Origin: Bilabrum cf. latius
Lineage: Eukaryota
Assembly (NCBI GenBank): GCA_965178125.1
Contig: OZ237741.1
Location: forward strand, 1,426,001-1,455,662
Reading direction: 5' to 3'
DNA length: 29,662 nucleotides
The position numbers were made by a program, and so were the translations under genes. How positions within the stretch are numbered: the stretch's first letter is position 1; every line of letters starts with the position of its first letter. Below the pieces are notes generated by a model. That model did not search any database and had not been told where the DNA came from. It was given only the letters and a program-made list of their open reading frames with translations. Below are positions 2 to 27,946 of this stretch, piece by piece.

Positions 2-2604
2 GATCTGATTCAGCAGCGCAACATCGAAATTCAGTAGCTGCGCGAAGCTATTGTGCAGCTTCAGGCGGACGCAGAGGGGACCACCTTAGACTCGTCTCGT
101 CGCGCACTGCAGGACGCCGGCGGCGGATCCGACGAGCGGGACAGTGGCGAGCTGCGGTCGCCTGCCAATGCGAGAAGCCTGGGTGCGTCTCTTGACCACC
201 CGAGGTACTTGACGGTCGACATCGACCTGGACGACGGCCCCTGGCAGCCGAAGTACTCTACCGTGCTGTTCCACCGCCCTAGGCCGCAGCCTGGTTGGTT
301 CAACCTGAACGACACGGAGCAGCTGTCCGAATGCCCCGAGCTTTTCCGCATCGAAGATCGTGCGTAGTGCGTCGTGCCTTGTGACCCTATATGGGCGTGT
401 ACCGGGGACAACTTCTGCGCCACAGGCTACAGAAGCGTCGGTCCCGAGTGGAGATGCAACGCCTGCGACGAGGGCTACTACCGCCGGGCTGGGGAATGCG
501 TAGAGTGCCCCGACAATCCGTGGATCCTGATCGCAGTATTCATCATCATCATGATCTGTGGCGTGGGGTTCGTTTACTTTCTGGCCAAGTACAACATCAA
601 CCTGGTTCTGACCACACTGGGAATGGACTTTTTCCAGGTACTCGCTTTATTCGCCCAGTCACGGGTTCCCTGGCCCCCTGTGCTGGAGGAGATCCTGCAC
701 GTGCTGTCCGCGTTCAACCTCAACATTGAGATCACCGCACCCGAGTGCACGGTGCCCGACCTCAGCTACATGTCCAAGTGGGTGTTCATCATGATGCTGC
801 CCGTAGCCGGTCTCGTGTGCCTCTCGCTCGTGTACTTCAGCGTGTCCGTGTACGAGCACTGCATCAAGGGCAAGACCAGGACCGAGGCATGGTACGGTCA
901 GCACCTGAACAGGTGCATCTCCATGTTCCTCGTTGGCGGGTACATCTTGTATCTCATCCTCTCCAGGACGTCCTTTGACGTGCTCAACTGCTAGGTGAGG
1001 CGCTTGAGTTTGCTGCTGCCTGTTGCTTTGACCACTTTGTGCTTGCCTGTGTACCGTGACTCTATCGCGTCGTTCGAAATTCCCGTATCTCGCAGCCGAC
1101 GACCCCTCCAGATGGCCGCCTGTACCTCCAGGTTGTGTTCGAGCCGTGCAGCAAGCCCGGCGGGGTGCATCGCACGCTTCTTGGCCCCGCCATTATCACC
1201 ATGCTGGTGTACGGCTTGGGGTTCCCCGCGATCGTGTTCTACGTGCTGTACACCAACCATGACCTCATCATGGAGGACCAGCTGCTGCGTGCCATGAGGA
1301 TGGGCGAGGACACTGTGACAAACCCTCACGCGCACACGATTCGCAGGAGGTACTCTAAGATGTACTTCGCATTCAAGCCCATCGGTTACCGCATCTACTG
1401 GATGCTGGCGCTGATTGCTCGCAAGTTCTTCTTCGCGCTGACGTCACTGCTGTTCGTGCGCAACGCGGTGATGCAGCTGTCCATGTCTCTCCTCGTGATG
1501 TTCGCCGCCTTCGCGGCTCAGACGAGGTTCCACCCTTTCATGTCACCGGACGAGATGGAGGACACGCTTAGGCAGCACAAGCGGCTGTCATTCGACCCCA
1601 GCTCGCCCCACTCCAAGCTGGCAGCAACCATCAAGTCGGTGGTGCAGAAGGGCAGGAAGCGGGCCACGTACGGACAGGGCTTCCAGAGGCTGACCGAGTC
1701 ACCCAACCTGCTCGTGCAGTTCGGTGGCACAGTGATGGGGGCCGCCATTAACTACAACACCATCGAGTCCGTGCTGCTAGGATCTGCCGTGCTGGTCAAC
1801 CTGAGCGGCATTATGTTCAGCTCGGGCCAGCTTAACACGGACGAGACGGGTGAGTACTATGCTGGGTACAGGGACACTCTCATCGCGCTGACTCTGGTGA
1901 TTATTTTCGGCACACTGATCTACTTCTTTGCGGTGTTTGCGTACGACATCTACACGCTCTGTGCGTCGGCCCAGGAGGCAGAGGCAGGGGCCGGGAAGAG
2001 TGGAAAGAAGGGGAGGCGCAGCTCCAGCGCACCCGGCTCAGGGGCAGCGGCGATGCGCGCAAAGGGCTCTGGATTTTCAGCTGGCTTGCCCGGCGAGGAC
2101 GACCAGATGGTTGGTGTGATCGAGCAGCAGACCAACCCCGTGTTTGCCCAGGCTCATCGCAAGAGCTTGATGACCGACTCTTTAGACGCCGAGGAGGCCA
2201 TGCAGGGCATGAAGGCGCTGCCTGATGAGCAGCAGTGGGCGGTCTTCAGGGAGCAGTACGGCATCCTGCAGCAGCAGGTGAAGGCCCTGACGGAGCAGGC
2301 GCAGGCTGCCAGGGAAAGCTCGGACCGAGCCGAGCTGGCGGAGCAGTCGAGGCCCAGCTCCTCCACAGAGGCGGCAGCCGCGGCGGCGTCTTCAGGTGGG
2401 GGGGTTCAGCGGAACCCGATGGGTAGGCGTGGCCAGCGCAGAGGCCGCAAGAGCATCTTCAGCCCGACGACTTCGGCCAGGGGGGCACTGCAGGCTGGCT
2501 CAGGGATTGAGCCTGGGGCTGGGGCTGGGGCGGGCGAGACTGGGTCTTCTCTGGCTGATCTGCGCAAGGGGGCGCGAGGTCGGTTGGGTGGGACCAAGGC
2601 CTGA
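2..2604 (+). CDS. 5'-partial multi-pass membrane protein with Cys-rich extracellular region and low-complexity/coiled-coil C-tail; exons <2-994 and 1096-2604; needs UAG=sense
   Basis: One frame from position 2 is broken only by TAG at 35 (EIQ*LREAI), 365 (EDRA*CVVPCDP) and 992 (DVLNC*). The TAG at 992 is followed directly by a GTGAGG donor. Intron 995-1095 ends CGCAG and rejoins in frame (PTTPPDGRLYLQVVFEPC). Cys-rich CNACDEGYYRRAGECVECP precedes many hydrophobic helices. Ends TGA 2602-2604. Confidence 0.85.
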
Positions 2605-2992: not shown

Positions 2993-4231
2993 ATGCATTC
3001 GATTCGCTCTGTGTCCCGATCTGCCCTCCGAGCTGCCTCCGGGATCCGGTCGTTCTCTGCTTCCGCTGCCGCCGTGAGATCTGCTGTGCGACGCTACGAC
3101 CGCACGCCCCGATTTTGAGTGGATCTTCAGTTCTTGTGCCTGATCCGTGACATAATCACGAGAGATAGTTTTAATGTAGTTTACCTGTGAATTGCGGCGT
3201 GTTGTGTGAAACTGAAGGGTGGGCCTGCGCTGATCTAAGACTTACGCAATTCTCAAGGTTGCAGAGCCCTTCCTACATGTTTTGCGCAGGGCAAGCGAGT
3301 AGCGGTGCTGGGCGCATCTGGAGGTATTGGTCAGCCAATGTCGTTGCTCCTGAAGCTCGACCCCAACGTCTCGTCTCTGTCGCTGTACGATATCCAGGGA
3401 TCGCCAGGCGTTGCGGCTGACATCGGCCACTGCTGCACTGCCGGCACGGTGGAAGGCTTCGCCGGGGCTGACCAGCTTGATGCTGCCCTCAAGGGTGCGG
3501 ATCTGGTTATTATCCCTGCCGGAGTGCCACGAAAGCCCGGCATGACGCGTGATGACCTGTTCAACACGAACGCGAGCATCGTCAAGCAGCTCGCAGAGGG
3601 ATGCGCCCGTGCCTGCCCCGAGGCTGCCATTGGCATCATCTCCAACCCCGTGAACTCGACTGTTCCGATCGCTGCCGAGGCGCTCAAGGCCGCCGGTGTC
3701 TACAACCCGAAGAAGCTCTTCGGCATCACCACGCTGGACGTGGTGCGCGCCAACAAGTTCGTCGGCGACTCGCAGGGCTGGGACCCCAAGGATGTCGAGG
3801 TCACCGTGGTGGGCGGACACGCGGGCAAGACCATCCTGCCGCTCCTCTCCCGCGTGCAGAACGCGCAGTGGGACCAGGAGACGCTCGAGAAGCTGTACAA
3901 CCGCATCCAGTTTGGCGGGGACGAGGTGGTGCAGGCCAAGGACGGGGCAGGGTCGGCCACCCTCTCCATGGCCTACGCGGGGGCACGGTTCGCCAACTCT
4001 CTGCTGCGTGCCATGGGCGGCGAGCAGGGCGTTAGCGAGTGCGCCTTCGTGGAGTCCTCCGTGACGGAGGCTCCCTTCTTCTCTACCAGGATCGAGCTGA
4101 CCGAGGAAGGCGTGGGCAAGATCCACGAGGTGGGGGAGCTGTCCGAGTGGGAGCAGGCCAACTTCGACGAGATGCTGCCTGTGTTGCAGCAGCAGATCCA
4201 GAAGGGCATCGACTTCGCCAAGGGCAACTGA
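2993..4231 (+). CDS. MDH2: Mitochondrial NAD-dependent malate dehydrogenase (340 aa); exons 2993-3073 and 3290-4231
   Basis: Motifs [66 protein letters not shown] and [15 protein letters not shown]. Exon 1 encodes an Arg/Ser/Ala presequence [27 protein letters not shown]. Phase-0 intron 3074-3289 (GTGAGA...GCGCAG). Ends TGA; no TAG codons. Confidence 0.96.
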
Positions 4232-4421: not shown

Positions 4422-6107
4422 TCAGACATCACCCCCACCGCTCCCCTCCGCCCTGCGCTCGCCCTCCTGGATGCTCCCGATGGAAGCACCGACACGGACC
4501 TGAGCGTCCCCACCCGCATCCAGACCCACGCTGCCACCCCTGCCTCCCTCCTCCTGCGCGCGTGCGTGCACCAGCAACAGCGGCTCCCGCGCGCCCATTT
4601 CTCCTCCGCCATCCGCGCCGATCGCAGCCGCCCCCGCCCCCTTCCTGCTCTCTAGATCCCCATGCCCTGGCCCCGGGCCCGCCCCGGTGTCTGCCAGATT
4701 CTTGGAGCTCCGCCGAATCGCTGCCGATGACAACGCATCCCAGTCACTGATCAGCACGAAGTAAGCAGCCGTCAGCGTGATGGTGGCATAGCCCGCCACG
4801 AGCGCCCCCCACAGCGCCTCCAGCCCCAGGTGCAGCACCAGCACAAACACGAAGGCCAGCGGCACAGACACGCCCCACGCACCAGGCAGGAAAGATGCCA
4901 TAATGGCCAGCGAGCGCGACTGCCCCTGCAAAATTGCCACCGACACAAAGAATATTGCCAACAGAAAGTACGCAGGACCCACCAGGCGCGACAGCTGCCC
5001 GATGTAATGCAGCACATCGGGGTCTTGGGTGAACACCTGGCCCAGGTGTTGGCCTGCCCCGATCAAGACAGCCGCGATGATTGATCCGATGCAAACGGAC
5101 ACAACAAGGTTAAGCCAAGCGACGAACCGAGCCGCTTGTACCTGGCCTGCACCCAAGTTGTGCCCCACCCGGACCGTCGTGGCAGACACCAGCCCGTACA
5201 GCCCCGACGTCAACAAGAAGAAGACCTGCAGCATCACCTAGTGAGCTGCTAGTGCATGAGGGCCCAGCTCTGCCCCGAGGAAAGACACCAGCTGCAGCTG
5301 AGCGTTCTGTAGCAAGTTGCCAGCCATCAGAGGCAGCAGCCGCTTCACGTGCAGCTCGTACCAACGCGAGGCAATCCACACGTCGGAACCCCCCAGCCCG
5401 CAGAACACGGCGGCTCGGTCCTCCCCGCCCTTCCAAGCCACGTACACCAGCACCATGACAAAAGAGGCCCAACGAGTGACCGACGTGGCGATCGGAGACC
5501 CAATGAACCCGAGACCCTCGAAGCCGAATGCACCAAATATCAGCACGTAGTTGAGCCCAGCATTCACAGCAAGCAGCGAAACGTTGATGACCAATGCTGG
5601 CAATGCGTCTCCACGCCCTTGCAGGTAGTTCTAGATGCACACTCGCCACATCATTGGTGGCAAGGAAACCATAAACCACCGGTTGAACAACCCAGCCTTC
5701 GAGCTCTCCTCGGCTGCATACCCAATGCCGAGCAGCACGTCTTCCGTGTATAGCCATGCAATCATCACTGGCACCAAAGCTGCAGTGCATGAACCCATGG
5801 CGATCCACAGCCAAGAACCTGCGAGCTCCCAGTTGCCGGCGCCCACAGCTTGCGAACAAAGGGCCTTGATGGTGGCTCCATAGGACTGCCACAAGCTGGC
5901 TGATGTGAAGTCTACCCAGACTAGAGCGAGGGCTGCCGAAGCTAGCTCAGATACCCCCAGGTGGCCCAAAAATGCATTGTCAGTCGTCTCGATCCCAAGT
6001 CGAGCCATCAGTGCGATTGCCATCGGCAGGCCAATGCTAACCCATGACACTGCTTCATTCAGCTGCTCCGCGTTCCATCGCTTACAACACCATGAAACGC
6101 TAGACAT
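4422..6107 (-). CDS. MATE-family (multidrug and toxic compound extrusion) transporter, copy A, 561 aa with two in-frame TAG
   Basis: ORFs 5631-6140, 5238-5603 and 4422-5237 share a frame and are separated only by TAG at 5631 and 5238. MATE motifs: FLGHLGVSELASAALA, LCSQAVGAGN, NYVLIFGAFGFEGLGFIGSPIATS, LAAH*VMLQ, VRVGHNLGAG. Ends TGA. Confidence 0.92.
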
Positions 6108-6488: not shown

Positions 6489-8174
6489 TCAGACATCACC
6501 CCCACCGCTCCCCTCCGCCCTGCGCTCGCCCTCCTGGATGCTCCCGATGGAAGCACCGACACGGACCTGAGCGTCCCCACCCGCATCCAGACCCATGCTG
6601 CCACCCCTGCCTCCCTCCTCCTGCGCGCGTGCGTGCACCAGCAACAGCGGCTCCCGCGCGCCCATTTCTCCTCCGCCATCCGCGCCGATCGCAGCCGCCC
6701 CCGCCCCCTTCCTGCTCTCTAGATCCCCATGCCCTGGCCCCGGGCCCGCCCCGGTGTCTGCCAGATTCTTGGAGCTCCGCCGAATCGCTGCCGATGACAA
6801 CGCATCCCAGTCACTGATCAGCACGAAGTAAGCAGCCGTCAGCGTGATGGTGGCATAGCCCGCCACGAGCGCCCCCCACAGCGCCTCCAGCCCCAGGTGC
6901 AGCACCAGCACAAACACGAAGGCCAGCGGCACAGACACGCCCCACGCACCAGGCAGGAAAGATGCCATAATGGCCAGCGAGCGCGACTGCCCCTGCAAAA
7001 TTGCCACCGACACAAAGAATATTGCCAACAGAAAGTACGCAGGACCCACCAGGCGCGACAGCTGCCCGATGTAATGCAGCACATCGGGGTCTTGGGTGAA
7101 CACCTGGCCCAGGTGTTGGCCTGCCCCGATCAAGATTGCTGATATTACGAACCCGATGGCAACAGAAACGACAAGATCTAGCCAAGCGACGAACCGAGCC
7201 GCTTGTACCTGGCCTGCACCCAAGTTGTGCCCCACCCGGACCGTCGTGGCAGACACCAGCCCGTACAGCCCCGACGTCAACAAGAAGAAGACCTGCAGCA
7301 TCACCTAGTGAGCTGCTAGTGCATGAGGGCCCAGCTCTGCCCCGAGGAAAGACACCAGCTGCAGCTGAGCATTTTCCAGCAGATTGCCAGCCATCAGAGG
7401 CAGCAGCCGCTTCACGTGCAGCTCGTACCAACGCGAGGCAATCCACACGTCGGAACCCCCCAGCCCACAGAACACGGCGGCTCGGTCCTCCCCGCCCTTC
7501 CAAGCCACGTACACCAGCACCATGACAAACGAGGCCCAACGAGTGACCGACGTGGCGATCGGAGACCCAATGAACCCGAGACCCTCGAAGCCGAATGCAC
7601 CAAATATCAGCACGTAGTTGAGCCCGGCATTCACAGCAAGCAGCGAAACGTTGATGACCAATGCTGGCAATGCGTCTCCACGCCCTTGCAGGTAGTTCTG
7701 AACGCATATGTACCACATCATCGGGGGTAGCGAGAGTAGATACCACCGGTTGAACAACCCAGCCTTCGAGCTCTCCTCGGCTGCATATCCAACGCCGAGC
7801 AGCACGTCTTCCGTGTATAGCCATGCAATCATCACTGGCACCAAAGCTGCAGTGCATGAACCCATGGCGATCCACAGCCAAGAACCTGCGAGCTCCCAGT
7901 TGCCGGCGCCCACGGCTTGCGAACAAAGGGCCTTGATGGTGGCTCCATAGGACTGCCACAAGCTGGCTGATGTGAAGTCTACCCAGACTAGAGCGAGGGC
8001 TGCCGAAGCTAGCTCAGATACCCCCAGGTGGCCCAAAAATGCCGTATCAGTCGTCTCTATCCCTAACCTTGCAACTAATGCGATCGCCATCGGGGTTGCA
8101 ATGCTAACCCATGACACTGCTTCATTCAGCTGCTCCGCGTTCCATCGCTTACAACACCATGAAACACTGGACAT
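6489..8174 (-). CDS. MATE-family transporter, copy B, 561 aa with one in-frame TAG
   Basis: Paralogue of copy A offset by 2067 bp. Single TAG at 7305 (LAAH*VMLQ). It has CAG at 7698 where copy A has TAG. Ends TGA. Confidence 0.92.
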
Positions 8175-8392: not shown

Positions 8393-9544
8393 ATGGAGCT
8401 GGACGATGGACCGCCGGGTCTTATTCGGGACAAGTCCGGCCCACCATCTGCAGGCTCGAAAAACAACGGCACTGCTCAAAATGCAGCGAGAGGAAAAGCA
8501 AGCAACGATACATCAGCAAAAGGGATCTCAGCTAAGCCAGTATCTCCATAGGGGCGGCGTATTAGCCTGGTGGCTGTCGTACATTCTATTGCGGCATTCG
8601 CAAACAAAGTTGGCACGGCATTCGCTCCAGAGGATGGCGAGTCTCATCTCATCGGTAGCGATGAAAGCATCAGTGACAGCAAGTAGGATGGTAAACGAAG
8701 GGGCTTGAGAAGTACTTCATCGAAAGGGGCCCATGACATGCGGCAGGGTATGAACAGAAGGCATTCTGACGACATAACCGCTATGGAACGGGGTAAAGCG
8801 TCAGAGCATATGAGAAATCGGCATGTTAGTGTTGATGCAGGTATTTCGCACGAAAATTTTGATTCAGGGCGATTGAGAATCACCCGGGCTTCAATGCCAG
8901 CAAGCACAGCTGCACGCTCCGCTCGTTCGACTGCCAGGATACCGTTCGCCGAAGTGTAGGCAGGCCAGCAAACAGAATCAGGTGATAGCAGTGGTGTGAC
9001 GCCATCAGAGCCGATTCGATAGGCCTGGGCAGGACCAGGCCCGGCTGGAAGCACGGCAGCCTCGATCGACCCGGTGCAGAGGATGATGGAGGGTCTGCAT
9101 GCAGGAGGGGGAGCACCAGTAGGGGGATAGGGAGACCGCGAGACATCCCCATCTGGGCTGGTCGCCCCATGCCCCGGGCGATCCATTACGTCTGATGCTG
9201 CCGAGCGCAGCTACCTTGGGCGGGCAGGGACAGGGACGGAGGGGGGGTTAGCTTGCGCAGGCGAGGCCACTACCTCTTCACCGCGCGAGCGGTCTGGGGG
9301 TGGCGGTTCGACACTCGACCCGAGCAGAGTGGCCCCGCTTGGATACGGCGCGCAACGCGGGCGGAGAGGCAGCTCGCAGGGACGTCGACATCGCTCATCT
9401 GCAGCGTCACTCAAGGGAGGTACAGAGGTGCGGCCAGCTCGACTGGCCTCTTCCACCATGTCGTACGATCCAGGAGATGACTGCTGCGGGGACGCCTGCC
9501 AATGCTTCCTGTGGGGGGAAGACTACGGCGAGACTTACCACTGA
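8393..9544 (+). CDS. Hypothetical low-complexity protein, 383 aa, with Cys-rich C-terminus; visible only if UAG is sense
   Basis: ATG 8393 (MELDDGPPGL) to TGA 9542-9544. In-frame TAG at 8549, 8684, 8957, 9020 and 9128, and no TAA/TGA. It fills the gap between MATE-B and the giant gene. Ends MSYDPGDDCCGDACQCFLWGEDYGETYH. Confidence 0.72.
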
Positions 9545-9620
9545 TTTGCCCACATCCACAGAAATGCATGTTAGAAGAAATCCGCACTTGCTCCCATGTC
9601 TATTCGAGTACTCAAATTCA

Positions 9621-12600
9621 TCAATCACCAATGGTGGGCATGCCGAACCCACCATCGCCGCCACCGCCGCCCGAATCCCCCCATGATCCCATGTCCTACC
9701 AATCATCGTTCCCTCCGTCTCCACCGGCAGGTGGACCAGCGGATGCAGCGTTGTCAAAAGCGGCATCCTGGGCGCCGGCATCAACGCCCCAACCTGTGGC
9801 TGCGCCATCCGCCCCAGAGGCATCGTCGGCACCCTGCTGTGCGCCCCAACCGCCACCATCCTGGTCTCCAGAGGCGTCACCACCGCCAGCTCCCCAGTCC
9901 AAAGGTGCTGCCCCACCATCATCCGCCCCGCCACCGGCTAGCGCGTCACTCCATCCCGTGTCTCCCCCATCATCGTTGGCCAGCCAGCTAGCCTCACCTG
10001 CAGCGGCCCCAGAACCATCCCCTGACTCTCCGGCGCCCTCTTTCGGTATGGCCTCCAGACCCCAACCCCCGCCTCCTCCACCGCTTGCAATGGCGCCGAG
10101 CCCGGGAATCCCACCTTGCTAGTCTTCCACTCCGCCTGCGGCAGGCAACGGCGTGTCACTCGGTTTCGTCGGCAGCCTGTCTTTGATAGCGAAGACTTCT
10201 GTAGTCGGGTACTTGTAACCACTGCCATCGCTTTTCTTTTGGAGTGCAATCTTGTCCCACACCTTGAATCCTTTCTTGTCAAATATCGTCGCAATCTTTG
10301 CTGGGGTCTTGGATCCAGTTGGGTCTCGATTGTCTCTCTAGTAGAAAGCCAACAACTCCCGCAGGTGCATCTGAACCTAGTCAGGTCTAAGACCATGCAA
10401 ATTGAAGCTGGAATCATACGGAATGTCATCCGGATGCGGCGCAGCAGGGGAGGGTGCTGACTCTGGTGCTGGGGCGGGCGCTGGCTCTGGTGCTGGGGCG
10501 GGCGCTGGCTCTGGGGCTGGGGCTGGGGCTGGCTCTGGAGCCGGGGCTGGGGCTGGGGCTGGCTCTGGAGCCGGGGCTGGGGCTGGGGCTGGGGCTGGCT
10601 CTGGAGCCGGGGCTGGGGCTGGGGCTGGTGTGGGCGCGGGTGCGGGCTCTGAACCCGGGGCTGGGGCTGCTAGCTCCGTATCAGGCGCTGGAGCTGACGG
10701 TTGCGGGGCCGGAGACTCTTCATCTGGCTCAACTCTCTCAGTCTGTTCAACAGAGCTAAGCTGGTCACCGACTGATGCCTACCTCTTCATCATGGCAGGC
10801 TGAACGTCCACCGCGGGGCTGTCTCCCGGCTGATTCCCCGATTCTAAATCAATGCCAGGCATAAGGACGTTGAGAGCGTTCCCCTGCTCGGCAGATGGAC
10901 CAGAATCCACGACCATACCTGGTGGAGCTGGAGGCAGCGGCAAAGCGTCGTGTTGCACCCGAAGTGTTGACACAGTTAGCAGCTCTGCATGCCGGGTGGC
11001 TGCGCGCGCTTCGCGCTCAATAGCGTGCAGGACCTGAGCAGAAGGCCTCACTCTAGAGCCGACGTCCCCCGAGCCGCCCTGGTGCTTGCCTACGAAAACC
11101 CCGGCAGTGCGATCAGCGCGCCGTTGACGAGTCTCTGGCGCCCATGACACACACTGCGCCGAAGCTAGCTGTGCCACAACGTGCATGGCAGAGATTCCAC
11201 TCGCACCTGAATGAGCTGCGCCAGCATTCAGCTTGCTCAGCCGTTGCAGCTGTGAGGAACTCCTCTTGGCCCTTCTGCGCGACCTTCGAGAAGTAGCAGA
11301 TCCTCGGCTAAACTCGGCTAATCTTGCATTCTACTTGTGTGCGGTGACTTGGCCCTGTTGATCGGTGGGAAGCACCAAATCGCTTGGTTTCCGCAACACA
11401 GGTGGTTGCCTGGCTGCTGCCAGGCTCGCAACAGCAGCGGCGGCCCTCCGGGTCGCATCACATCTCCGCAACACATGCGTCGCAGCATCCATCGCTTTCG
11501 AAGAAGCTGGCACAGCCTCCTGTAGCTGGCGGTGCATCGATAGCAGCAGCACTGCCTGGCGTCGGCTCGTAGCCAAGTCCCGCCCTACTACTGGCTGCAT
11601 GCCGTCGCGATCGATTGAGCTTATGGCAGCGCGAAGTCCGCCCAGATAGCGCTGCACCGTTGCACATTCAGCGCTTGCAATCGGTAGCTCCTAGCCGGCG
11701 GTCGAAATGGAGGTTTGAACGCTGTTGAGCTGGCGCTTTAGCCGGAGGTGCTGGTCGTCACTACTGGAACCACCAGACTGCCAGGCGGCGGCATCCCCCT
11801 AGATTTCCGCGATCCGGTGGACCACGCCGGACACTGCATGCTTTCGGGTTGCAACCAAAAGCTCCCCACGTGTCAACCCGCGGTACAGCCGTTGCAGCTC
11901 ATGGTGCACAAGACCTGTGCTCAAGTCTGCCCACGCGTCCAGTTGCTAGGCTGCTTCACTCTGATGCGAGGTAATGGCCGCGTTGATTGCCATTTCGGCC
12001 GATGCAAAGCGTCTTGCACCCTGCTTTAACTGGGATCGAGCTGGATCAGATTGCCCATCGACGTGCCTTAATCTACCAAGTAGCTCGTCAGCGAGCTTCA
12101 CAATAGCTTCTCGGCCTCGCTCGCTAGCAGTGTGCAGCGGAGAGGCCAGGGCTTCCATCGAGCCATGCGATGGCACGGAGAGCACTTGCCGGAGGCCATC
12201 ATTGATCCTCTTGAACTCGATGCCGAGAACGGGCTCGATTGCTGCTGCAAATCGCCCCTAGGACTCGGCACCACGGGCGACAAGGCCACCTTCGTCTGCA
12301 CTGCTCTCAATCTGGCTTGGCTACTCATCATCCTACAATGGTTGCGCAGGTGAAAGAGCAAGCTGGCCACCATTTTCAGACCAACCAGACGGAAGCACTG
12401 CTCCCCTTTGAGCGGCTACCGTGGCAACACCAACGGCTCTTGATCGCAGAATAGTTGCCGCGCGCTCTTCATCAGCCGCCTGCGCAGCACAAGCCCGTGC
12501 ACTCTGCACGTTCTCTTGATACCGATCGACGTACCGGCGGTAGTGATACGGCGCATCTCTGGCAGCAAGCTACTCCTGGTCGCTCATGCGTCTTCCGTTG

Positions 12601-15600
12601 GCCGCCTTGTCTTGGACCTCGTCAATCCACGCTGCCTTGTACTGCGCCTCCCGGGCCATGTGCAGATACCGGGACTCGCTCTCTCGCAAGGACCGTGCCT
12701 GTGATGCTCTCCCAATTGCTTGCAGCCTGAGCACCTCCGCAAACTCCATCTGTTGAGCAGGGTCATGCAATGATATGTTGACTTGCTGCGCTGGAGGCAA
12801 CTGTGCAATCGCACCGTTCTCGCCAGCTGCACCTGAGTCTGGCAGAGGGTTCTTACCGGCGGGCTGCTTTCTCGGGGCATCGGATGGCTACCCAGCCGCG
12901 GGAGATTGAGCAGCAGGCGCAACTGCAGAAATTCCTGCTGCTGGATTCGCTGCAGCCGCCGCTGCTGCTACTGGATTCGCTGCAGCCGCTGCTGCTGCTG
13001 CTGCTGCTGCCGGAGCTACACCAGATACTGCCCTGGCATCGGCTGGCGCTAGGCCTGCCTCAGACTCCCCGGACGGACGAGCACCAGCGATTGTCCTAGC
13101 TGCTCCTTCCCCTGGGTGTGCACCTGAGGCACTCAGCAGCCTCTCTCGCACAGCTGCAGCAATGGGGATCAGCGGCGCTGTGATGCTGGCATGAGTCAGA
13201 TCTGTTCCCATACACAGCATACTGCTAAGGTCCTCAGGAATAATGGCAGGGTCTAATGCGCTCTAGCGTCCGATCGCTTCTACTAGCTTCTCGGGCACGA
13301 CGATGCCGGCATCTGACAGCTCAACGCGGCCGAGCCAACTCCTCAAAGCAGCGGATGCAGCAGAAAGCCTCATGCTCAAAATGCTTGCAGGCCCCCTACG
13401 CGCGATGAGTCGCTTCGACTAGATTACGCCTTGTGACGACATCATGAGCATCTGCATTGTAAGCGGCGCTCTCTGCTCGGCTTGAGCGAGGCTGGCGGCG
13501 TTCATCTCATTCACGAAACCACCTCTGCTCAACCACGACGACAGCGCGGAAGGGACAACAAAACTCTGGCCATCCGAGCGAACCGCCACTCGGAAAGGAT
13601 CCAAGTCTGTACCGGGCTGGACCAGCGATGGCGTGCCGCCTTCCACATGCATGGAACGTACGTGATCAGCCAGAGATTGCTGGGACGCGCACATCAGGCC
13701 GCATACGCGGCAACGCTCGGCGGCATCACTGGCAGCTGCCTCATCGGTGCTGCATGAAGCTTCCAGCCACCTTAGCTCAGCAGCGTCATCCGGCTCCTTG
13801 TCGTCGAATTGGTTCTGCTGCGGCTTGGTGCCGAGTGCAGTCGTCGAGGCAGACATGTCGAGGGCTTGAAGCGCTGCTAACCGTGTGCAAACGACAGGAT
13901 CGCCTTGGCCTTGCACTGAGTGGTGCAAAACCGAGCTTGGCTTGCGAGGCTGCATGACCATTGCTACGCCGACCACCCGAGGGAAAACTGAGACGGTTCG
14001 ATGTCCAAGAAGAGTGCTTCTGGCATCATCACACCTGACTGGTTGCCACATTGCGTGCTCGCGTTCGTACATCGCTTTGCCCCTGCTCGCCCATTGCTTC
14101 TTGTTGTCTTCCGGTTCCGTGCCCTCTGGTATCAAGTCGCTGCGAAACCGCTGCCCCGCATCACCGTCATCCCACTCAGTCCCAATTTCATGGGAGTCCG
14201 CGGCAACCTCGTATTGCATCCACGGGTGCACGTCATCGTCTTGCTCAGGGCCCAAACCTGGAGGTGTTGCAGAGCGTTGGGTCCCTGCGTACACTTCATC
14301 ACCAACATCGAGAGATGCCCTTCCGTCGCCGTCCCCATCTGCATCTTCTTCGCTCTCCCGGCCCGCTTCCTACCGGAGAAACTGCACGGCGCCTATGGCT
14401 TCCGGTGGAGCCCCTGCCATCAGCATACGTCCTTCAACAGTAGTCAGCGACTGCCTCCAACGCCTGGCAACCCATGCCAATAGTTGCTCCGATTCAATCA
14501 GGTGGGATATCTCGTCGCTACCACTCGCAAACAACTAGCGGCTGCGCGCGATGGCTGTCCCGCCCCCTGCTGCAGCTATAGCATGAGTTCTTCCACCCGC
14601 GGTGCCACCGCTGGCGTGCAACCCAGCTGCCATGAGGCGTTGGCGCAGAAGCTGGACGTATTTTGGACGCTCCAGCAAAATCGGGGCTGGGGATCCAGAC
14701 GACGCCCCAGCAATCATGCCCAGTGATGGATAGTACTCGAGCTTGTAGGACAACGCCAAATGCCTGCGGAGTTGCTCTGAGCGAGGGTCCAGCCAGCCGC
14801 TGCCTGTACTTCCAGCTTCCCACATTTTACGCTTCAAGTTGAGAATATCGGACTTCATGCACTAAACGTCCTCACCTGCGCCCCAAATCACTGTTCTCCT
14901 CCAGTTGTGTGATTTATGAGGCTGTACCAACTGCCGCTTCCATTTCTCGTAGTCGGTGTTGATCAGCAGACGGGCATCCTTCCCCTACGGCCCAAACCAC
15001 TTTTTGGGAGGTCCAACAGGGATATTGCACAACTCAATCACTGCAAGACAGTGATTGTGCTAGGTTGCTGCAGCTTGCCTCCACTCCTCCATCGATTGCT
15101 TATCCTCGTCCTCGTCCATTTCGAAAGGCCAAAACTTGAAGCCGTACCGCTCCGCATCCGCACAGACCTGTTTGCCCCGCTCTTCCAGCTGTCTGATACG
15201 ATCAGCATTATCTGCACTGCCTCGCAGGGAAGCGTACTCATTCGCGATGCCAGCCACAGCTGCCCCAATTTCATCCGGAAGCCTCCGCCTCCATCCAGCT
15301 AGCAGCATCGTAGTGCTTTGGTTGGACCTGCGCCGCAGGTACTTGGATAGCTGAGCCATGTATGCGCTCCACTCTGCGCGAACTGCAGAGGTGTGTTCAA
15401 AACCTCTGTCCTTGGCCTCAGAGGGCGTCCCCACTGTGTGAGAGCTATGCGCATCGGGGCCATACGCGGCGACCAGCTTGCGAATGGCCTCGTCCTTGGA
15501 CGAAACCGCCCTCTTGCACTCATCGAGCGCTTGAGACAAAGATCTCGGTCCTGACCACGCGAGAACGGCCTGCTCGGACTGCACCAGCCGCTGAACTTTC

Positions 15601-17645
15601 GCATCATCGATGCTGAATCGCTCTCGCACCCACGGGGCCGCACCTGTCGTGGAGTTGGTGCGCAACCAATCTCTGAATCCCGCATCAAGGTGGTCGTCAT
15701 CAGTGCGACGGGCGCGCTCAGCCCGTACCCCCTCGGCATTGAGTGCAGAGACAAGCCCAGCAGGCTCAGCGCCATCTTGCGCATGCGATAGACTATCGAT
15801 AGCTGCGTCAGAGGCCCCACTCCTGCCCTTCATGGAGGCCTTGAGCTCCTCGAGGTCCTCCTTGCTCCATCGCTCAATCGCTCCAGCTTCATCGGAACCC
15901 TTATCCTAGTGGAAAGGGTCATGCAGGTAGTGGCACTCGTAGATCGGGGGCTCGGCCTCAAGCTCTGCTGCCGGCTGAGGGGGCAGCGGGGGGCTCAGCA
16001 GAGGTATGAAGTGCTCGGGCAACACTCCCGCCGCAGTCAGCATGCTGGCCTGGCCCCGTTGCAAGCCTCCTCTCAGAGTCTGATAGATGGGCATGTACCC
16101 CACTTCTCCAGTCTGCAGGCCGATCCACATGCAGTCCGACGTCTTCTCACTGGCATTAAGTGAGTGCTTGCCTGCAGGGGCCAGGCATGCTGCAGATAGC
16201 CCAGGAATCCGCATTGTTAGACTTGGCCACATGGGCTTGCTCGATTCAAACACACCGCCACCCACCGGGGTAAAATCGTGCCGTGCAGCCACGGCGGGCA
16301 CTTGAAAGAGCCACACCGTCTCGTGCTATGCGCTGACCGCAAGCAACGTGTGTGGCTCGCTCGACTCATCAGGCGGGGCACCCTTGCGCGCCAGATGAAG
16401 CTTAGGAGATATTTGGGCGTTGGAGCACAGCTGAATGGAGCTGAGCTCCCCGGTAGCCTGCATGAACTCAAAGGTCCCGTCTTGGCGCACCGGCAACTCT
16501 GGCACTGGCAGCTGGCAGCGTACCCGGATTGCGCCCGGCCATCCAGCTTCAAGCGAGCCAGGCAAGCCGATGCAGAACAAGTCCAAGCATGCATGAATTG
16601 CCATGGATTGCGCTGCGCCAGCAGCTGCAGCTCCGCCCGTAGCAACGCGCGTGCCAGCTGCGGCAATCCAGTGCGTACCGCTGAGCTTGGCGAGTCCTGC
16701 AAAGTTTGCGCGGGGACTAGTGCCCCGGGCTATGTCCCTGCATAGCTAATCAACACCAGCTTGGTCGCCAGAGGGCATTGATATCGCAGAGACCCGTGAT
16801 ACCACGCACGTATCACCTCCTGAGCACGGCAAATGCATGCAGTACGCGCCTGGCTCCTCATCGGGAAGGTCGGAATCGCGTTGTACAGATGCCTATGCCA
16901 CGCCAATGGGATCAAATTTCACTTCAGTGTTCTTTTGTCGCGTTTCGATCGCTTCAGGGGCGAAGGCAGCGATCGGGAGAAGTTTGACGCCTGCGTGAGG
17001 GACAGAGGCATTCGGGCTACACAAGCGTTAATATGCGTGTTGTACCTCATATAATAAAATGAACTAAAATCACTTACCGGACTTGCTCGCGCATGCAAGC
17101 ATTCCAGCGCTTCGCAGCAGCGACATGCCATACACTCCGCCTTCCCCGGAGGGCTTCGAAAAGCTATGCAGTGGTGCTGGCCCCGCATCAGACAGGGTAG
17201 CAAAACAAGACTCCTGCTCATCAGCACCGATCATAACAGGGCACTCATGTTGCTGCATGTATACCCTAGCTTTTGGGGCAGCGACCGATACAGGATCTGA
17301 ACCACATGCGGTCTCAACCCTACCAGCTGTGCCTCTTGGCCCTTGATGGGATCCTTCAGCAGCTCCTGAAATGAGTCTTTCGTCACTTAGCTCTCCTACC
17401 CGCAAGGCTTCCTCGAAAGCAAGCGATTGGACTGCCTGATTCAGCCGCATGCTGGGCAGCCCAACTGAGTGCTGCTTGCCAAGCGGTGAGCAAACTCGAA
17501 GGACCGCTTCACGCTTCTTGGGTCCAAAATAAAGCTTTCCGAACTCTGGTGCTGCATTTTGGGCCTATGCCATGGTGTGATGAGGTACTGGGCTGAGAAG
17601 TGCCTGACCGGTCATCGGGCAAGGCTCCTTGAAATCGTGTTCCAT
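9621..17645 (-). CDS. Giant hypothetical protein (~2,645 aa): C2H2 zinc finger, Pro-Ala-Glu linker, Gly/Asp/Trp-rich tail; exons ~17645-17078 and 16990-9621; start uncertain
   Basis: A 7.37-kb single frame (16990-9621) contains 25 TAG, no TAA and no TGA until tandem TGA-TGA at 9623-9618. One more TAG lies at 17565 in exon 1. The 87-nt intron 16991-17077 (GTAAGT...CACGCAG) removes the only in-frame TAA/TGA and joins CASKSG|VKLLP. Confidence 0.85.
10460..10670 (-). repeat. Coding minisatellite encoding (PAPAPE)n linker
   Basis: GGGGCT/GGCTCTGGAGCC repeats on + read as PAPEPAPAPAPEP in the frame of the giant gene. Confidence 0.85.
13647..13712 (-). other. C2H2-type zinc finger motif within the giant protein
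   Basis: CRVCGLMCASQQSLADHVRSMH matches C-x2-C-x12-H-x4-H. Confidence 0.7.
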
Positions 17646-17723
17646 ATTCGGAATTTGATAGTTTGAGCATCACATCGGGATGGAGCCAACGACATAAAGT
17701 TGACATGGAGCAATGTATAATGT

Positions 17724-19905
17724 TTATGTATCGGGCCTGATGCTACTAGACCTTTGCATGCCCACAGCTGTCGCTCCATCAGCTTGAGCCCCGCAAGGCT
17801 TGGCTGGCACTGGGCCGCAGCCCACCATTGGTGAGCTGCCACGAGGCCGTCCAGCACCCGTGAAATGCCCCCCAGACCTGTGTACTGCTAGATGCTGAGA
17901 TTTCGCCGCATGCAGCAAAAGGCTACCATCCGTGGTCGATCCTGCCGACACACTACCTACCGCACGACCGTGAGCGGCGAGTGGCAGGCCCACAGCACCT
18001 GTCCCTGTGCTGCTCGTGCCAGCGGAGGCTGCTGCATCTCCGTTAAAGCCTGTGTGCGATGCAGGCGATGTGTGCGAGCTAGGAATACCCCCTGAGCCAG
18101 AGCTCACAGATGGCAAGGGCAGTGCAGGACGTACCCCAGTGCCGGTAACTGTGCCATAGTGATGGGAGCTGCCGGTGCCTGCCGTAGCACCTGCGCGCGG
18201 ACAAGAGCCCCAGGTTGTCCCGTCGCTGCTCCCGCTGGTACTGGCTGGTAATGGTTCGCAAGCTGTCGGTGAGTGTGCGCTTGATCCTGTGTCCATCGGC
18301 ATGCTGGCAGCGGGCAGCAGCGGTGCCGTGCAGCTCACCGCATGGGTCGAACCAGCATCAGGTGAGGCCACGGTACTTCGTGGAGCAGAGCCCGCGTCAA
18401 TGGCAGCCGCACGCTCGTCTCTGCCCGCTGCTACTCCGCTGCTTCCCTTTCGTGCACGTGCACGCGCGCGCTGCTGCGATGCATTCATGCCACACCACGG
18501 CGGGCATGTGGACTCGGCGGGGCGCCCTGCAGCACTGGCCTCTCGAAAGGAAGAGGCCCTGCGCTAGCGGTAGGAAGAGGATCGGCACCACAGGATCAAG
18601 TTGGAACGAGACCCTGTTCGGATGGGAAAGGCCCCGTGCCTGTGCCTGCCAAGGTGCAGCACGGCCCAGCCCGGCCGGTGCTTGTAGTCGTACCGCTCCC
18701 CCTCACCTGGAGGACTCTGCTGGTGTGCTTCGCAGCGAGTCCCCCGGAAGAAGAGATCGCCGCCTTCAAACACATCGCCTAAACATAAATTCAGCGTTAC
18801 CTCGGCGTCATCCACGTGGAACCCCAATGACTTGTCTTTCCTCGGGGCGTACTGCACCACGAAGCCGTGGTGCGAGTCCAAGTCTATCTTGCCCTTCGCA
18901 TCCCCAAGTGAAGGGAACGCGGCCTCCGCAAGTGGGCTAACTATTAGATTCGTGAGAATAGACAAGGACTCGTTCAAGCCTATATCGTCCAGGACGACAC
19001 CAAAATTCTGCGGTGATGTAGTTGGAGGTGGTGCAACCTTGCAGGCGTTGGGACTGTCTCTTCGGCGCTAGCAGCGGCACGACAATAACTATTCTTCGTG
19101 TATGCACAGCCTGCTTGACCGCGGCGAGAACTTAAACGCACATTCATGGAATTTGGGCGGTTGACGTGCAGCCCGCTCGTCTTTGCCCAAGACTCGAACT
19201 ATCCGACCTCCTCGAGCAACCTTGCACACACATGAGGTGGGAAGCAAGGAAACGCGTATATTCCTGGATGCAGCTGCTGCATGAACCCAAGTTTGTCGTC
19301 TTGAGTGCCCGATAGAGCTTCAGCTAGCTCGTCGCAGAGTTGCAAGCCGCCGTGGGTTCGCAGCGCTGGGTGTAACGGTGTGTAGTTCGCGGCGATGAAC
19401 TGCGAAACAGATTTAATTATTCGAATGAAACCATCGTGTGATATTTTCTGGGCATCCCGCAGTACATAAATGGTACTACTTACGTCTCTGTACTGGTCAA
19501 GCAACCTATGAACCAGTGTATCTCTTGCCGCCCGCTCATGGGCAGCGTGCTGCTAATAGCGCGCATACACTCGGCGCAAATATGCAATCTAGTCATGTTT
19601 TGACCCACTCTGCGCACGTAATTGTAGTTTGTTCGCTAATCTCCAGAGAGTTTCCGATGCGCCACGTGATTCCATCTTTCTGGCGCTACATGCAGTCTCA
19701 CTAAGACTTCAGGCGGAAACGTTCTCTGAAACTTGACCCAAAACTCATCCGGTCGCAGGAAATCGGGTGCACGACCCACTGGAGGCTTTGAGGCTTCCAT
19801 AAATCGCGCTGATGTACCAGCGATTGCCGAGCCGCTGCCCATAGCATTACCGGAACTACGAGCATCAATCTGGTGTGCTCCTCCGCAACCGCCGGACCGA
19901 CACAT
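17724..19905 (-). CDS. 2-oxoglutarate/Fe(II)-dependent oxygenase (PKHD-type/OGFOD2-like) with long disordered C-tail; exons ~19905-19571, 19505-19142, 19007-17724; start and first intron less certain
   Basis: RPNSMN|NFGVVLDDIGL is joined by intron 19008-19141 (GTGCGT...CCGCAG). Motifs HHGFVVQY, HxD in LGFHVDDAEVTLNLCLG, distal His in HRHGA, and GSRSNLILWCRSS. In-frame TAG at 19636, 19199 (LLEEVG*FESW) and 18564 (SSYR*RR...CPPWCG). Ends TAA 17724-17726. Confidence 0.85.
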
Positions 19906-20398
19906 TGGAGAGCCTTCAACAATGAATTAAGTATAAGTAGATAATACACGAGACGTACAGGTTCGGAGACGCACATAGTCCACCTCAATAGCTTCTCAGG
20001 GCTCGCTAAACCATAGCCACCGCCCCCCCCAACATAAGTGCACTCAACTTCCTAAAAAGCAGACTCCTACACGCCCGTTGGAGGTTATCTTGGGTTTCGA
20101 CAACTGCAATTAACTGCGCCAACACGATAGCCCTGGTCGAAATTATTGTTGGATATAGCATTCTTCATAGGTTTGGTGTCATCAGTTGCTACCATGGACT
20201 CCAGCAATCGATTCAGCTTGAGGTGAGTCGCTCGCATGGAGCAGCCATACATGTACCATGCTCCACCACGATCCATGTATTCTGCACTGCATTTTAATGG
20301 AATCCATGTTGAATTGTCGGCCATACGAATGTATCCTGTCCTACCATGGCATTGCCCCTCAAATCTTCGCGTGCAGTCCTGGACGCGAGGCTGCTGCT

Positions 20399-23300
20399 AT
20401 GATCATGAGCCAGTTGAGCAGCCCTGACGTAGGGATATTGCGATAGGTATGTTAAACGTATTCTCTGAATTGCTCACATCCCTGGGCTTCCTGTCGTGCA
20501 ACCGAGCTGTTAGCAACCGTTCGGTCCGATTGCCACGCGCAGGCAAGGAAAGGAAACACAGACGGGCTAAATAGTGAAGTTGACGACGTGTTCTTTCCTA
20601 GGCGCGCTGCCTTAGCGAGCCTTGCAGACAATTACACAGGGGTTTCGAACTCTCCAAGCGGCCCATTGCGCCAAGGTCGCGAGGCGGATAGAAGCATGGG
20701 GCAACAGCCTACGGTTGCGAAGATTCACGGCTCCAGCATCTCGATGGGAACCCAATAGCATCCCTCTATTGGGCCAGAAAACCATCTTGTGCAGGTACCT
20801 GCTGGTTGGGGAGCACCACCTGCCACCGCTGCTGCGCACCATGCCCCGGCTACTAACGGCAGCGCCGCGCGGCCAGAAAGGCCCGCGCTGGGCAGCAGCA
20901 CAGCGAAGAGCGGCCCCGGTAATAGCAGCAGCAAGGACGTATAGTCTGCTTTATATTCTCAAGGGCCCAGCACGGCGCTCGCCTACAGGCCCGCGCACCA
21001 GCACCAGCACCAGCAGGCACAGGTGTAGGCCGGAGGGGGGCCGGGCCAGAGCCGAGCGGCGGTCAGCATCCAGTCGGTGGCTCCTAGTGACCGGCCGACG
21101 CTGGCTCAGCGCATCGGTGTGCTCGATGCGGCCATTGAAACCGACCGCGCCCATGTGTGTGGCTCCATCGTTGTAGCGGGGGTCAGCGTCCCGGCCCCCC
21201 CTCGGCTGGTAGCTCCAACTCACGCACTGCCAACTTTGGCAGACGTGGTACTTGCAATTCCCCACGCAGATTTCACTGATGCAGTCTCAAGAGCAGTTAA
21301 AAAGCTACCCGCTGCCGCTAGAGAGTCGCTGTCATCAGCAGCTGCAGGGATTCAGCCTGCCCAGCAAGGCGCCGAGCAGGTGCGCGGGCTGGATGTGTGG
21401 CGCCCGCATCCGTGCGTGCTGCCTGGAGGTTGCGACGAGGCCATGACTTCCAAGTGCAGGGCCGTGACTGGCGGTGCGGTGCTGGAGCGCAAATCAAATG
21501 AGGCATTTGGTACATGCGGGGCCATGGGGGAGGGTGCTGATGGTCTCTCGCAGGCATCGCTGCAACCCAGCGCATCGGCAGCCACCGGCAGAACGAGTCT
21601 CGGAGGCACTTCTAAGGCAAGTCGCAAGGACAAAAGCCTTGGGTTGTTGTGCGAAAAGTGAGATGGATCATTCGTAGTCGCGCTGCTTGATGTGACCGGA
21701 CTCTTGCTTCCTCCTGCACTCGCTGCCGTAATATGTTGCCACGTGTTTTTGATTCATGATGGATTGACCACCCCCCCCTCGCAGTTTTCTCGCACATTTT
21801 GGTCGCGGGGAGATTCTGGAGTTCTAGCTCGACGATGTTGCCACGGTTCTGGACGTGGAGCGCAGGCGTGTGTACGACGTCATCAATATTCTTGAGGCGC
21901 TGCGGATGACTTCACGAAAGGAGAAGAACAAGTACGTGTGGCACGGTACAGGCGGTCTTCCTGCTGTGCTCCAGCATCTGCAGAACCAAGCCATGCAGGA
22001 TGGCAGCAACGTGCTCCCAGGTAGCCCCGATGAGCCTCCACAGCCGCACTCTATGCACTGCCGCGTGCAAACCGCCCCGGGCATGCACATCGAGGTGTTT
22101 GCAGAGGAGTCTGCAGATGCACCTTGTTCCACCAATAGCAACCTAGGATCAAAAAGGGGCAGACAGGGGACTACGGTTGGAGACTGCCCGGATCCCAAGC
22201 GAAGAGCGGTTGGGGAATCTGGTTTGTCGAAGCAGAACGACGAGGACCCACCGGCAGTCGAGGTGGACTGCATTACCGAAGCGGATCAAGACCTAATGCC
22301 ACCTGATAAGCTCCGGCAAAGTGCCAACATTTGCAGCCAAGCATGTGTGGCTGCTTCCGTTGCGAGGGCTACACTGAGCTGGAAGAACGACGTGCTCTCG
22401 TTCCGGGACTCGAGGGCCGAGTCGGATGCGGCCTCGAGTGCCAAGCGGGACAAGAGCCTCGGCACCCTGGCCCAGCGCTTTGTACAGCTCTTTCTTGTGG
22501 GCAGGAGCGTGCTGGCCCTGGAACACGCCGCCAAGATCCTCATGGCTGCATCGGGGCTGGACGCCTCCTCAGTGGATCCCACAGAGGCTGCCTTCAAGAC
22601 CAGAGTACGGAGACTGTACGACGTTGCCAACGTGCTGCAATCCCTACGGTTGGTCACCAAAGTGACATTTGCAGAGACATCATGCGCTCGAAAGCCTGCA
22701 TTCGCATGGCGGGGCCTGGGTGCTGTGCCTTTGTTACCTGGGCGAGCAGCACTGGCGGTTCGTGATGAGATTCGAGATGTGGCTGCTGGTCGGGCTTCAA
22801 GCGATGGGTCGGGGATTTGGCGATCCAACATAGCAACCTCTGCCAAATTAGCCCAAAGAGTTGGCCCTAATTCAGCGCGGTGCGCTGTAAGCGGCAGTGC
22901 AGGCTAGCCCGCGAGTCGGCAGCACACATCATCGGCTTCAGTCGTAAGCATGCCGCCAAACGACTCAGCGCGGGCGTATGCACTGTCTCACAAAGCAGTT
23001 CCATTGCCAGCAACTGCTGCGGGCGACGCAAGGCTGCTGGGTGGCGGGCACGGCTGCTCGAGTGACTCGCAGGGCAGCACCGTCGTGCAACCTGCTTAGG
23101 GTTTCGGCAACCTCAGTCTCGAGTAGAAGTTCGAGATGGGCCGTAGAATCGCAAACGAGGAGGCCCACACGTGCATGTCGCCTGCACCAGTTGGTTCACC
23201 GTCATCTCGATCCACATCGAGACGTACTGCGAAGGGCAAGCTATCGTATGAAGGGATCGATGCGACTCCATAGCAACTGCAGGCCATCGGGTCTAGCCCA

Positions 23301-24224
23301 TATGGCATGCCAGGCAGCGCAGTACCCGCTTCTGCCCTTGGCCGTCGGCTCTTTGGCGGTCGCTGGCAGCCTCCAGGATTCCGCACGAGCCACTAGTCCA
23401 CACCAATGACAACAGGCAATTCCGTTGGGACAAAGCCTTGGAACAGAAGTGCCCCTGGGACAACGACTGGCGCTATTGCTGAAGAAAGAGCTCCTAGCTT
23501 CAACCCCAAGCAGGACCCCGAGGACGCACAGAGCCCCCAACTCAACCTCTCGAGCATGCTTGAGAAGGAAGCGGCGCAGGCTGGCTTTAAGGAGAATGCG
23601 TCTCATCAGGAATCAGTGCAGCGATAGGAGCAGGGCAGCGATTTTCCCGACCAAGAGCTTGTTGATGTTGACCCGGCAGCGCGTGAGAGCTCCGCAAAGC
23701 CAGCATCCGTTCTCACCGTCTTTTTGAAGAGATCGCAGTCTCGCACGGGGGGGCGTGGAGAGGAACGAGAGGCAGGGCTGTAGTCGCCCTCCAGCCCTCG
23801 AGCTGTTCGTGCACCTTCAGCTTCGACGGATGACCGCGAAGACCAAGAGCTCGAGGAGGGTAGTCTATGTGCAGTGCAGCCGGCAGCGTCATCATCTACT
23901 GGTAGGAGTGCATCAAGCTCGGGGCAGGTGCACTCAGCCGGGCAAGGGCCTCAGCAACTGACATCAACAAGCAGCTCAGTCGGTGCACTCGTGTCAATGC
24001 CTAAGCCTGAGAGCGCTTCTTCGGTAGCCTACAGGACAGTCAAGATGCATGCTGCAGCTCGTGGTGTGTCAGTAGAACAGGTAATCGTTGCGATGCGGAA
24101 GCAACGAGACGATGCTCTTGCCGTTCTAGCAAGTGGCACAGCACTCTAGCCATCTCAGGAAGCCGTGATTACCCTTTTGCAGCAAATTGAGTCGGAGCAC
24201 CAACGCTCGACCGGGACGGAGTAA
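20399..24224 (+). CDS. Atypical E2F transcription factor (E2F7/8 / DEL type, two winged-helix DNA-binding domains), ~1,200 aa; exons ~20399-20446, 20543-21657, 21785-24224; start uncertain
   Basis: DBD1 is SRKDKSLGLLCE|NFL...F*LDDVATVLDVERRRVYDVINILEAL...YVWHG. DBD2 is KRDKSLGTLAQRFVQLF...FKTRVRRLYDVANVLQSL...KPAFAWRG. Introns 20447-20542 and 21658-21784 are GT-AG. There are 13 in-frame TAG, one inside DBD1 (21825). Ends TAA 24222-24224 with TGA two codons later. Confidence 0.88.
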
Positions 24225-24294
24225 AAGTGACTGTTTCGATGTTGCCGCGTTGGTAGAACTGGTATATTGTGAATGCATGTATTCAACGTCTTCT

Positions 24295-27945: not shown

Positions 27946-27946
27946 T

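Follow-up and report, generated by a model that had tools for sequence, protein, structure and literature searches.

A few nuclear genetic codes split UAG from UAA, so that UAG is read as an amino acid and UAA remains a stop codon. They show that one eukaryotic release factor and the tRNA wobble rules can distinguish the two codons. Here, we examine a probable code of this kind in the genes of a 29.7 kb stretch of contig OZ237741.1 (positions 1,426,001 to 1,455,662; hereafter the window), which has a GC content of ~59%. The fornicate Iotanema spirale is an anaerobic metamonad known from its transcriptome. It reads UAG as glutamine (Gln, Q) and keeps UAA and UGA as stops, with UAA as the primary stop (PMC5304391). 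Rhizaria sp. exLh reads UAG as leucine (Leu) and keeps UAA as a stop (PMC5304391). In Protocruzia tuzeti, Hartmannula sinica, and Trochilia petrani, UAG is Gln and UAA is a stop (PMC11687900). UAA is also kept as a stop in Scotinosphaera, where UAG is serine (Ser), and in three TARA phyllopharyngeans, where UAG is Leu (PMC11687900). Codes in which both UAA and UAG are Gln (UAR=Gln) are found in many ciliates, hexamitid diplomonads, some ulvophytes, Streblomastix, and Amoeboaphelidium (PMC11687900). For Iotanema and the phyllopharyngean ciliates, the published logic is that only a CUA anticodon is present and UAA is thereby retained (PMC5304391; PMC11687900). A sequence-only reading of the window had stated that UAA and UAG are usually reassigned together. 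The UAG-only cases published since 2017 were missing from this background (PMC5304391; PMC11687900). Because Iotanema, exLh, Scotinosphaera, Protocruzia, and the phyllopharyngeans have already been described in these papers, decoupling of UAG from UAA is a known phenomenon.

We consider it likely that the window belongs to a GC-rich, probably stramenopile, eukaryote in which nuclear UAG is an amino acid, most likely Gln, and in which UAA and UGA are the only terminators. In the mechanism we propose, a dedicated tRNA-Gln with the anticodon CUA would decode UAG and would be unable to pair with UAA. A tRNA with the anticodon UUA would have to be absent, because it would read both UAA and UAG. ARAGORN found no tRNA gene within the window, a scan of 29.7 kb only. 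Termination at UAG would have disappeared or be outcompeted, whether or not eukaryotic release factor 1 (eRF1) is visibly altered. UGA, found at 5-6 of 7-8 gene ends, would be the main terminator and UAA a minor one. The sequence-only reading had held that an altered eRF1 is needed, which is too strong: in the rhizarian exLh, with UAG=Leu, the conserved eRF1 motifs (GTS, NIKS, YxCxxxF) are not obviously altered (PMC5304391). In human numbering, the eRF1 differences at issue are T32G in Iotanema and L69A in exLh (PMC5304391).

UAG as a sense codon in transcribed genes

Codons were counted over 11 coding segments (6634 codons) defined by RNA or homology. Some of these segments were delimited by the absence of TAA and TGA and are thus partly dependent on the count, while the exons of three genes are bounded independently by RNA splicing. 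The 6634 in-frame codons comprise 46 TAG, zero TAA, and zero TGA, and TAG is present in nine of the 11 segments. Read in the +1 and +2 off-frames, these segments (6624 codons per frame) contain 17 and 23 TAA and 114 and 153 TGA, respectively, which amounts to ~2-2.7 TAA and TGA per 100 codons. CAG occurs 202 times in frame and CAA 92 times. GC bias fails to account for the missing TAA because CAA makes up 31% of the CAR codons, that is, CAA plus CAG (92/294). If TAA:TAG were to follow CAA:CAG, zero TAA beside 46 TAG would have a probability of P = 3e-8. Genes with a GC content at third codon positions (GC3) of ~0.8, namely malate dehydrogenase and the second part of a membrane protein gene, have no TAG and use one CAA vs 46 CAG. 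Genes with a GC3 of ~0.6 carry both TAG and CAA. TAG would therefore act as a non-preferred Gln codon that accounts for ~13.5% of all putative Gln codons.

Many of these TAG codons are in one large gene on the minus strand. Its last exon (9621..16989) is supported by spliced RNA contigs, by homologous open reading frame (ORF) pieces, and by a co-linear open frame in a metagenomic contig, L001. It contains 2455 sense codons followed by the TGA stop 9621-9623, with 25 TAG, no TAA, and no internal TGA in frame. The minus-strand frame 9621..17027 as a whole is open over 2468 codons if TAG is taken as sense, with the same 25 TAG and neither TAA nor TGA. The exon uses 65 CAG and 50 CAA. Upstream of it is an 87 nt GT..AG intron (16990..17076), which is spanned by the DNA contig X6 and excised at the joint 16989/17077 in the RNA contigs X5, X7, and X8. 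The first exon (17077..17588) is covered by the X5 RNA contig and has its ATG at 17570-17572. The gene opens with ATG-GCA-TAG, so that its third codon is already TAG (17565-17567). A Pfam scan of the large protein found no family. The 25 TAG and zero TAA had been seen in the sequence-only reading, which placed the exon at 16990-9621, one base off the RNA joint. Its argument that CAA is used regularly, and that the absence of TAA is not just GC3 bias, holds, with 50 CAA vs 65 CAG in the exon and P = 3e-8 over the 11 segments. It had looked to internal TAA in other genes as evidence to the contrary, and the 11 segments of the window contain none in frame.

The TAG codons are present unchanged in RNA. 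Contigs of four public runs (X5-X8) were aligned on 8300-24290. None of X5, X7, and X8 is recorded as RNA, and their RNA origin was read from their spliced contigs: they are RNA because they skip seven GT..AG introns, and X6 is DNA because it runs through the same seven introns. The three RNA runs and the DNA run come from other studies and match the window sequence without listed differences. Spliced X5 contig pieces contain 36 of the 40 in-frame TAG of 8300-24290, with zero differences from the genome, and no splice joint coincides with a TAG in the RNA contigs of this region. Stretches without RNA cover (e.g., 17589-17714 and parts of 20048-20540) were not taken as silence. TAG is thus neither edited nor spliced out, and its standing as a sense codon in conserved, transcribed, and spliced coding sequence is supported.

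Two further transcribed genes carry TAG. The first is an OGFOD2-like 2-oxoglutarate/Fe(II) oxygenase on the minus strand. Its internal exon (19142..19399; RNA contigs) has an in-frame TAG at 19199-19201 within the conserved stretch EEVG-TAG-FESW. Its last exon (17715..19007; Pfam PF25238) is unspliced, with RNA contigs that span 17715/17716-19007. It has a single in-frame TAG (18564-18566), located upstream of, and in the same frame as, a CPPWCG stretch that aligns to a conserved WCG region in most homologues. The second gene is of the E2F/DEL type, encodes two winged-helix domains, and is on the plus strand. One of its exons (20541..21657) has three in-frame TAG and is bounded by the GT..AG joints 20444/20541 and 21657/21785 in the X5 RNA contig. 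Its last exon, followed here to the end of the RNA contig (21785..24277; Pfam PF02319, 1.2e-30), has nine in-frame TAG.

Past the CPPWCG stretch, the oxygenase has a tail of ~250 residues (17727-18480) that is rich in Ser, Gly, and Ala and is absent from all 14 aligned homologues. This tail should be translated, because it is within the unspliced, transcribed last exon without a TAA or TGA. The oxygenase and the large gene are compactly spaced (17588-17726), with the large-gene RNA contig starting at most ~126 nt beyond the oxygenase contig ends.

A divergent relative shows the same pattern. A metagenome scan with a narrow alignment of the large protein found one contig, L001 (5204 nt, 52% GC). 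One of its frames is open over all 1734 codons, with 20 TAG, zero TAA, and zero TGA; its off-frames contain 14 and 10 TAA. In L001, CAA outnumbers CAG (44 and 35; CAA is 56% of CAR), and zero TAA has a probability of P = 8e-8. The L001 frame is homologous to the large protein of the window, and a region with a C2H2-like CxxC...H motif is conserved in both. Conservation of the large protein, at ~41% identity, therefore extends over a clade with a common code. Closer relatives have proteins with ~87-94% identity to those of the window's genes. The ORF piece of a ~87% identical relative ends exactly at a window TAG site, a sixth beside the five compared below, and that of another relative ends where its sister sequence has Q. 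Similarly, the ORF of P0004, a MATE homologue, ends where the window has Q. For the ~87-90% identical relatives, the code is judged by the break points of the ORF pieces, which suggest that UAG may be sense in them as well. Standard-code gene prediction shatters the proteins of the window organism. The database pieces of its relatives break at TAG sites of the window, or at Gln sites of the window or of another relative, and such predictions should therefore be viewed with caution.

Amino acid read at UAG

The clearest comparisons come from two MATE transporter genes on the minus strand. MATE copy 1 (4422..6107; Pfam PF01554) has TAG at 5631-5633 and 5238-5240 and the stop TGA 4422-4424. MATE copy 2 (6489..8174; Pfam) has TAG at 7305-7307 and the stop TGA 6489-6491. 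Copy 2 has CAG at the site of the copy 1 TAG 5631-5633, and P0004, the closest homologue at 62%, has Q at both MATE TAG sites. Hence, Q is found in three of three MATE comparisons with the paralogue and P0004. In an alignment of the MATE protein to PDB structures, the two TAG columns are variable (V, T, Q, S) among solved MATE transporters and give no amino-acid signal.

The large gene and the oxygenase add further sites. In the large-gene ORF pieces of ~87-90% identical relatives (three Logan pieces on two contigs), the residues at five TAG sites are Q, Q, Q, K, and D. Cafeteria roenbergensis has Q, Q, H, and E at the four oxygenase TAG sites. The window was also compared with L001 at 41% identity over 1706 aligned positions, using TAG sites in either sequence and taking as conserved those with a local identity of at least 8/14. 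At these conserved sites, the partner of TAG is Q at six of eight, and the other two have A and G. One TAG is paired with TAG. Across all 36 aligned TAG sites, the partners include Q 7, S 3, L 1, K 1, and E 1, with S, L, K, and E only where the local identity is at most 6/14. In more distant ORF pieces (P0125-P0127), the residues opposite four TAG codons are T, T, N, and A; conservation around these sites is poor, and they are uninformative.

Glutamine is the most likely meaning of UAG, judging from tens of aligned sites compared by a method that is not phylogeny-aware. It is the best reading because Q predominates at the conserved TAG sites and Leu and Ser are nearly absent. The partners that speak against it are K (two sites) and D (one site) in close relatives, and T, A, N, H, and E in distant homologues. 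We consider it unlikely that UAG encodes a different residue (Lys, Glu, Leu, or Ser) with UAA and UGA as stops. Nuclear codes with UAG=Leu and UAG=Ser do exist (PMC5304391; PMC11687900). Lys would fit K at two TAG sites in close relatives, one of them in the oxygenase, and in most oxygenase homologues one TAG site is occupied by E and another by K. Set against this, Q is the commonest residue at conserved sites, with 6/8 in L001, 3/3 in MATE, and 3/5 in close relatives, and the few S, L, K, and E of the L001 comparison occur at its weakly conserved positions.

UAA as a probable terminator

Seven gene ends in the window are clear. Two are TAA, five are TGA, and none is TAG; one further probable end is also TGA (9542-9544). 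In the oxygenase frame, the first stop other than TAG is TAA 17724-17726 (minus strand). The next in-frame stop is TGA 17670-17672, 18 codons beyond the TAA and outside the RNA contigs. In the E2F/DEL frame, the first stop other than TAG is TAA 24222-24224 (plus strand), with an in-frame TGA (24228-24230) two codons on. The sequence-only reading had located the only in-frame TAA of exons at these two gene ends (17724 and 24222) and had pointed out the TGA that follows each, 18 and 2 codons later. The counts and the coordinates agree with it on both.

RNA contigs of the oxygenase bear on the question. Those of X7 and X8, obtained in separate studies, stop at 17715/17716; they run 8-9 nt beyond the TAA and leave 43-45 nt to the TGA, although contig ends are a weak marker. 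The X6 DNA contig continues past these ends. The summed RNA depth fits no cover over ~17589-17714 and falls to the level of the neighbouring gene. These contig ends are as expected for a TAA stop with a very short 3' untranslated region (UTR), and hint at one. From the in-frame counts, the upper 95% bound on the frequency of a sense TAA is ~4.5e-4 per codon. At that bound, the expectation for one TAA among the final 18 codons of one gene and another among the final 2 of a second is ~0.008 x 0.0009. It is very improbable that a sense TAA would be placed there in two of seven genes. The earlier view that UAG is sense and UAA still a stop is thus supported by zero TAA in both the window and L001, by the two frames that end in TAA, and by the ends of the oxygenase contigs.

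Several observations weigh against UAA as a terminator. Only two gene ends in the window are TAA, and each is closely trailed by an in-frame TGA. The X5 RNA contig ends at 17732, ahead of the oxygenase TAA, and no poly(A) was seen at the oxygenase RNA contig ends. The E2F RNA contig cannot discriminate between TAA and TGA because it extends past both, to 24277. A further point counts against UAG as purely a sense codon: in two genes, the large gene and the E2F gene, a TAG occurs 25 codons before the terminal stop.

This last point would suit a context-dependent UAG that is sense within genes but can terminate close to mRNA 3' ends, next to the stops UAA and UGA (cf. Condylostoma, karyorelicts, and Blastocrithidia). 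The TAG in question precede a TGA in one gene and a TAA in the other, and the 3' UTRs are apparently very short. Every gene end in the window can be explained without TAG as a stop, and only seven gene ends give no power either way. The phyllopharyngean UAG-only ciliates show no such duality (PMC11687900). We regard a dual role of UAG as improbable. The chances are smaller still that both UAA and UAG are Gln, with UGA as the sole stop and TAA rare through GC-richness. The in-frame TGA 2 and 18 codons behind the two terminal TAA, and the prevalence of UGA among the gene ends of the window, would be explained by such a code. It would have to accommodate zero TAA vs 46 TAG where CAA is 31% of CAR (P = 3e-8), and zero TAA vs 20 TAG in L001, where CAA is 56% of CAR (P = 8e-8). 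One would not expect so rare a sense codon to fall right at the end in two of the seven genes, and the oxygenase RNA contigs stop short of the next TGA. Untranslated TAG codons, through pseudogenes, misassembly, TAG-to-CAG RNA editing, or missed introns, have a negligible probability, since the frames are free of TAA and TGA over thousands of codons vs ~2-2.7 per 100 off-frame and the distant L001 keeps the same open frame with TAGs of its own. Three RNA runs and one DNA run also reproduce the sequence, with 36/40 TAG unchanged in spliced contigs, and as far as these data go this reading is refuted.

The chromosome end, its host, and other codes

The malate dehydrogenase exon (3239..4231, plus strand) has no TAG, one CAA vs 17 CAG, and the stop TGA 4229-4231. 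A membrane protein gene of unknown family (2..2604, plus strand) consists of the frames 2-1057 and 1060-2601 with a presumed intron between them, and ends at TGA 2602-2604. Its three in-frame TAG are near the start. The probable gene at 8294-9544 (plus strand) has ~382 codons from the first ATG, five in-frame TAG, and a TGA stop (9542-9544). It is covered by RNA contigs, has weakly positive support from codon usage, and runs towards the large gene, 3' end to 3' end; a Pfam search gave no match for it. The tandem MATE copies (4422-8204) encode proteins that are 96% identical, with their differences clustered in a few short stretches. This indicates a recent duplication or gene conversion.

Beyond the E2F/DEL gene, the window ends in a layered subtelomere (24295-29662). 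Its outset is a 56-bp tandem repeat with 24.7 copies (24295-25679). Interstitial TTAGGG-type arrays follow at 25678-26286 (~101 copies) and 27950-28402 (~75 copies), and a terminal array of the same type occupies 29106-29662 (~93 copies). Two distinct 155-bp satellites (26349-27719 and 28464-29107) are found between these arrays. The TTAGGG-type arrays and the satellite-rich subtelomere identify this as a eukaryotic chromosome end. The presence of interstitial telomere arrays near the true end suggests that this end has been healed or has recombined repeatedly.

Pfam recognises malate dehydrogenase, the two tandem MATE transporters, the OGFOD2-like oxygenase, and the E2F/DEL factor. The best named matches of malate dehydrogenase are from oomycetes, a diatom, chrysophytes, and Ectocarpus (61-66% identity). 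Those of MATE are from oomycetes, and that of the oxygenase is from C. roenbergensis (59% identity). Stramenopiles thus provide the best named matches for all three genes searched (malate dehydrogenase, MATE, and oxygenase). The source organism is probably a stramenopile, a placement drawn from best homology matches rather than from phylogeny. Going by these matches, it is not one of the organisms named above for their UAG-only codes.

No nuclear reassignment of UAG in stramenopiles was found in the open-access papers and preprints searched. The chances seem about even that UAG=Gln alone arose independently in a stramenopile clade with at least three divergent forms: the window organism, its ~87-90% identical relatives, and L001. 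With similar reserve, we suggest that this clade may be unusual in being GC-rich and in ending genes mainly with UGA instead of UAA. If true, the GC-richness and the use of UGA would make it less likely that the code arose by codon capture, with UAG lost under AT pressure. A further independent case that is GC-rich and ends most of its genes in UGA, with RNA data and a chromosome-scale sequence at hand, would test the need for AT-driven codon loss in the capture of UAG. It would also add a pair of eRF1 and tRNA-Gln(CUA) for comparison with the pairs of Iotanema and the ciliates.

Outside nuclear genomes, TAG alone is reportedly read as Gln in phages with TAG=Gln recoding. This phage code is listed as 'code 15' in the NCBI table. 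Such phages are viral, depend on bacterial translation, and face another release-factor system, whereas the window is part of a nuclear chromosome with spliceosomal introns. Among nuclear codes, the UAR=Gln lineages have turned a stop into Gln as here, but in them TAA is Gln too, whereas TAA is found at 0/6634 codons in the window and 0/1734 in L001. UAG is likewise decoupled in exLh and the TARA phyllopharyngeans, where it is Leu, and in Scotinosphaera, where it is Ser; TAG of the window aligns with Gln and hardly with Leu or Ser. Hartmannula, Trochilia, and Protocruzia have the same variant as the window, with UAG widely used as sense and UAA not reassigned. The phyllopharyngean ciliates use UAA as the stop of 86.9-98.3% of their genes and UGA least often (PMC11687900), whereas UGA dominates among the gene ends of the window. 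The window also differs from ciliates in its stramenopile homology, its long TTAGGG arrays, and its satellite-rich subtelomere. Iotanema is like the window organism in that UAG alone is reassigned, apparently to Gln, UAA is a stop, and a tRNA-Gln(CUA) would be expected in both. The two part in their choice of terminator: UAA is the primary stop of Iotanema, while TGA is the commoner stop in the window (5-6 of 7-8 ends). The window also has a GC content of ~59%, frequent GT..AG introns, and stramenopile sequences as its closest named homologues, whereas Iotanema is a metamonad.

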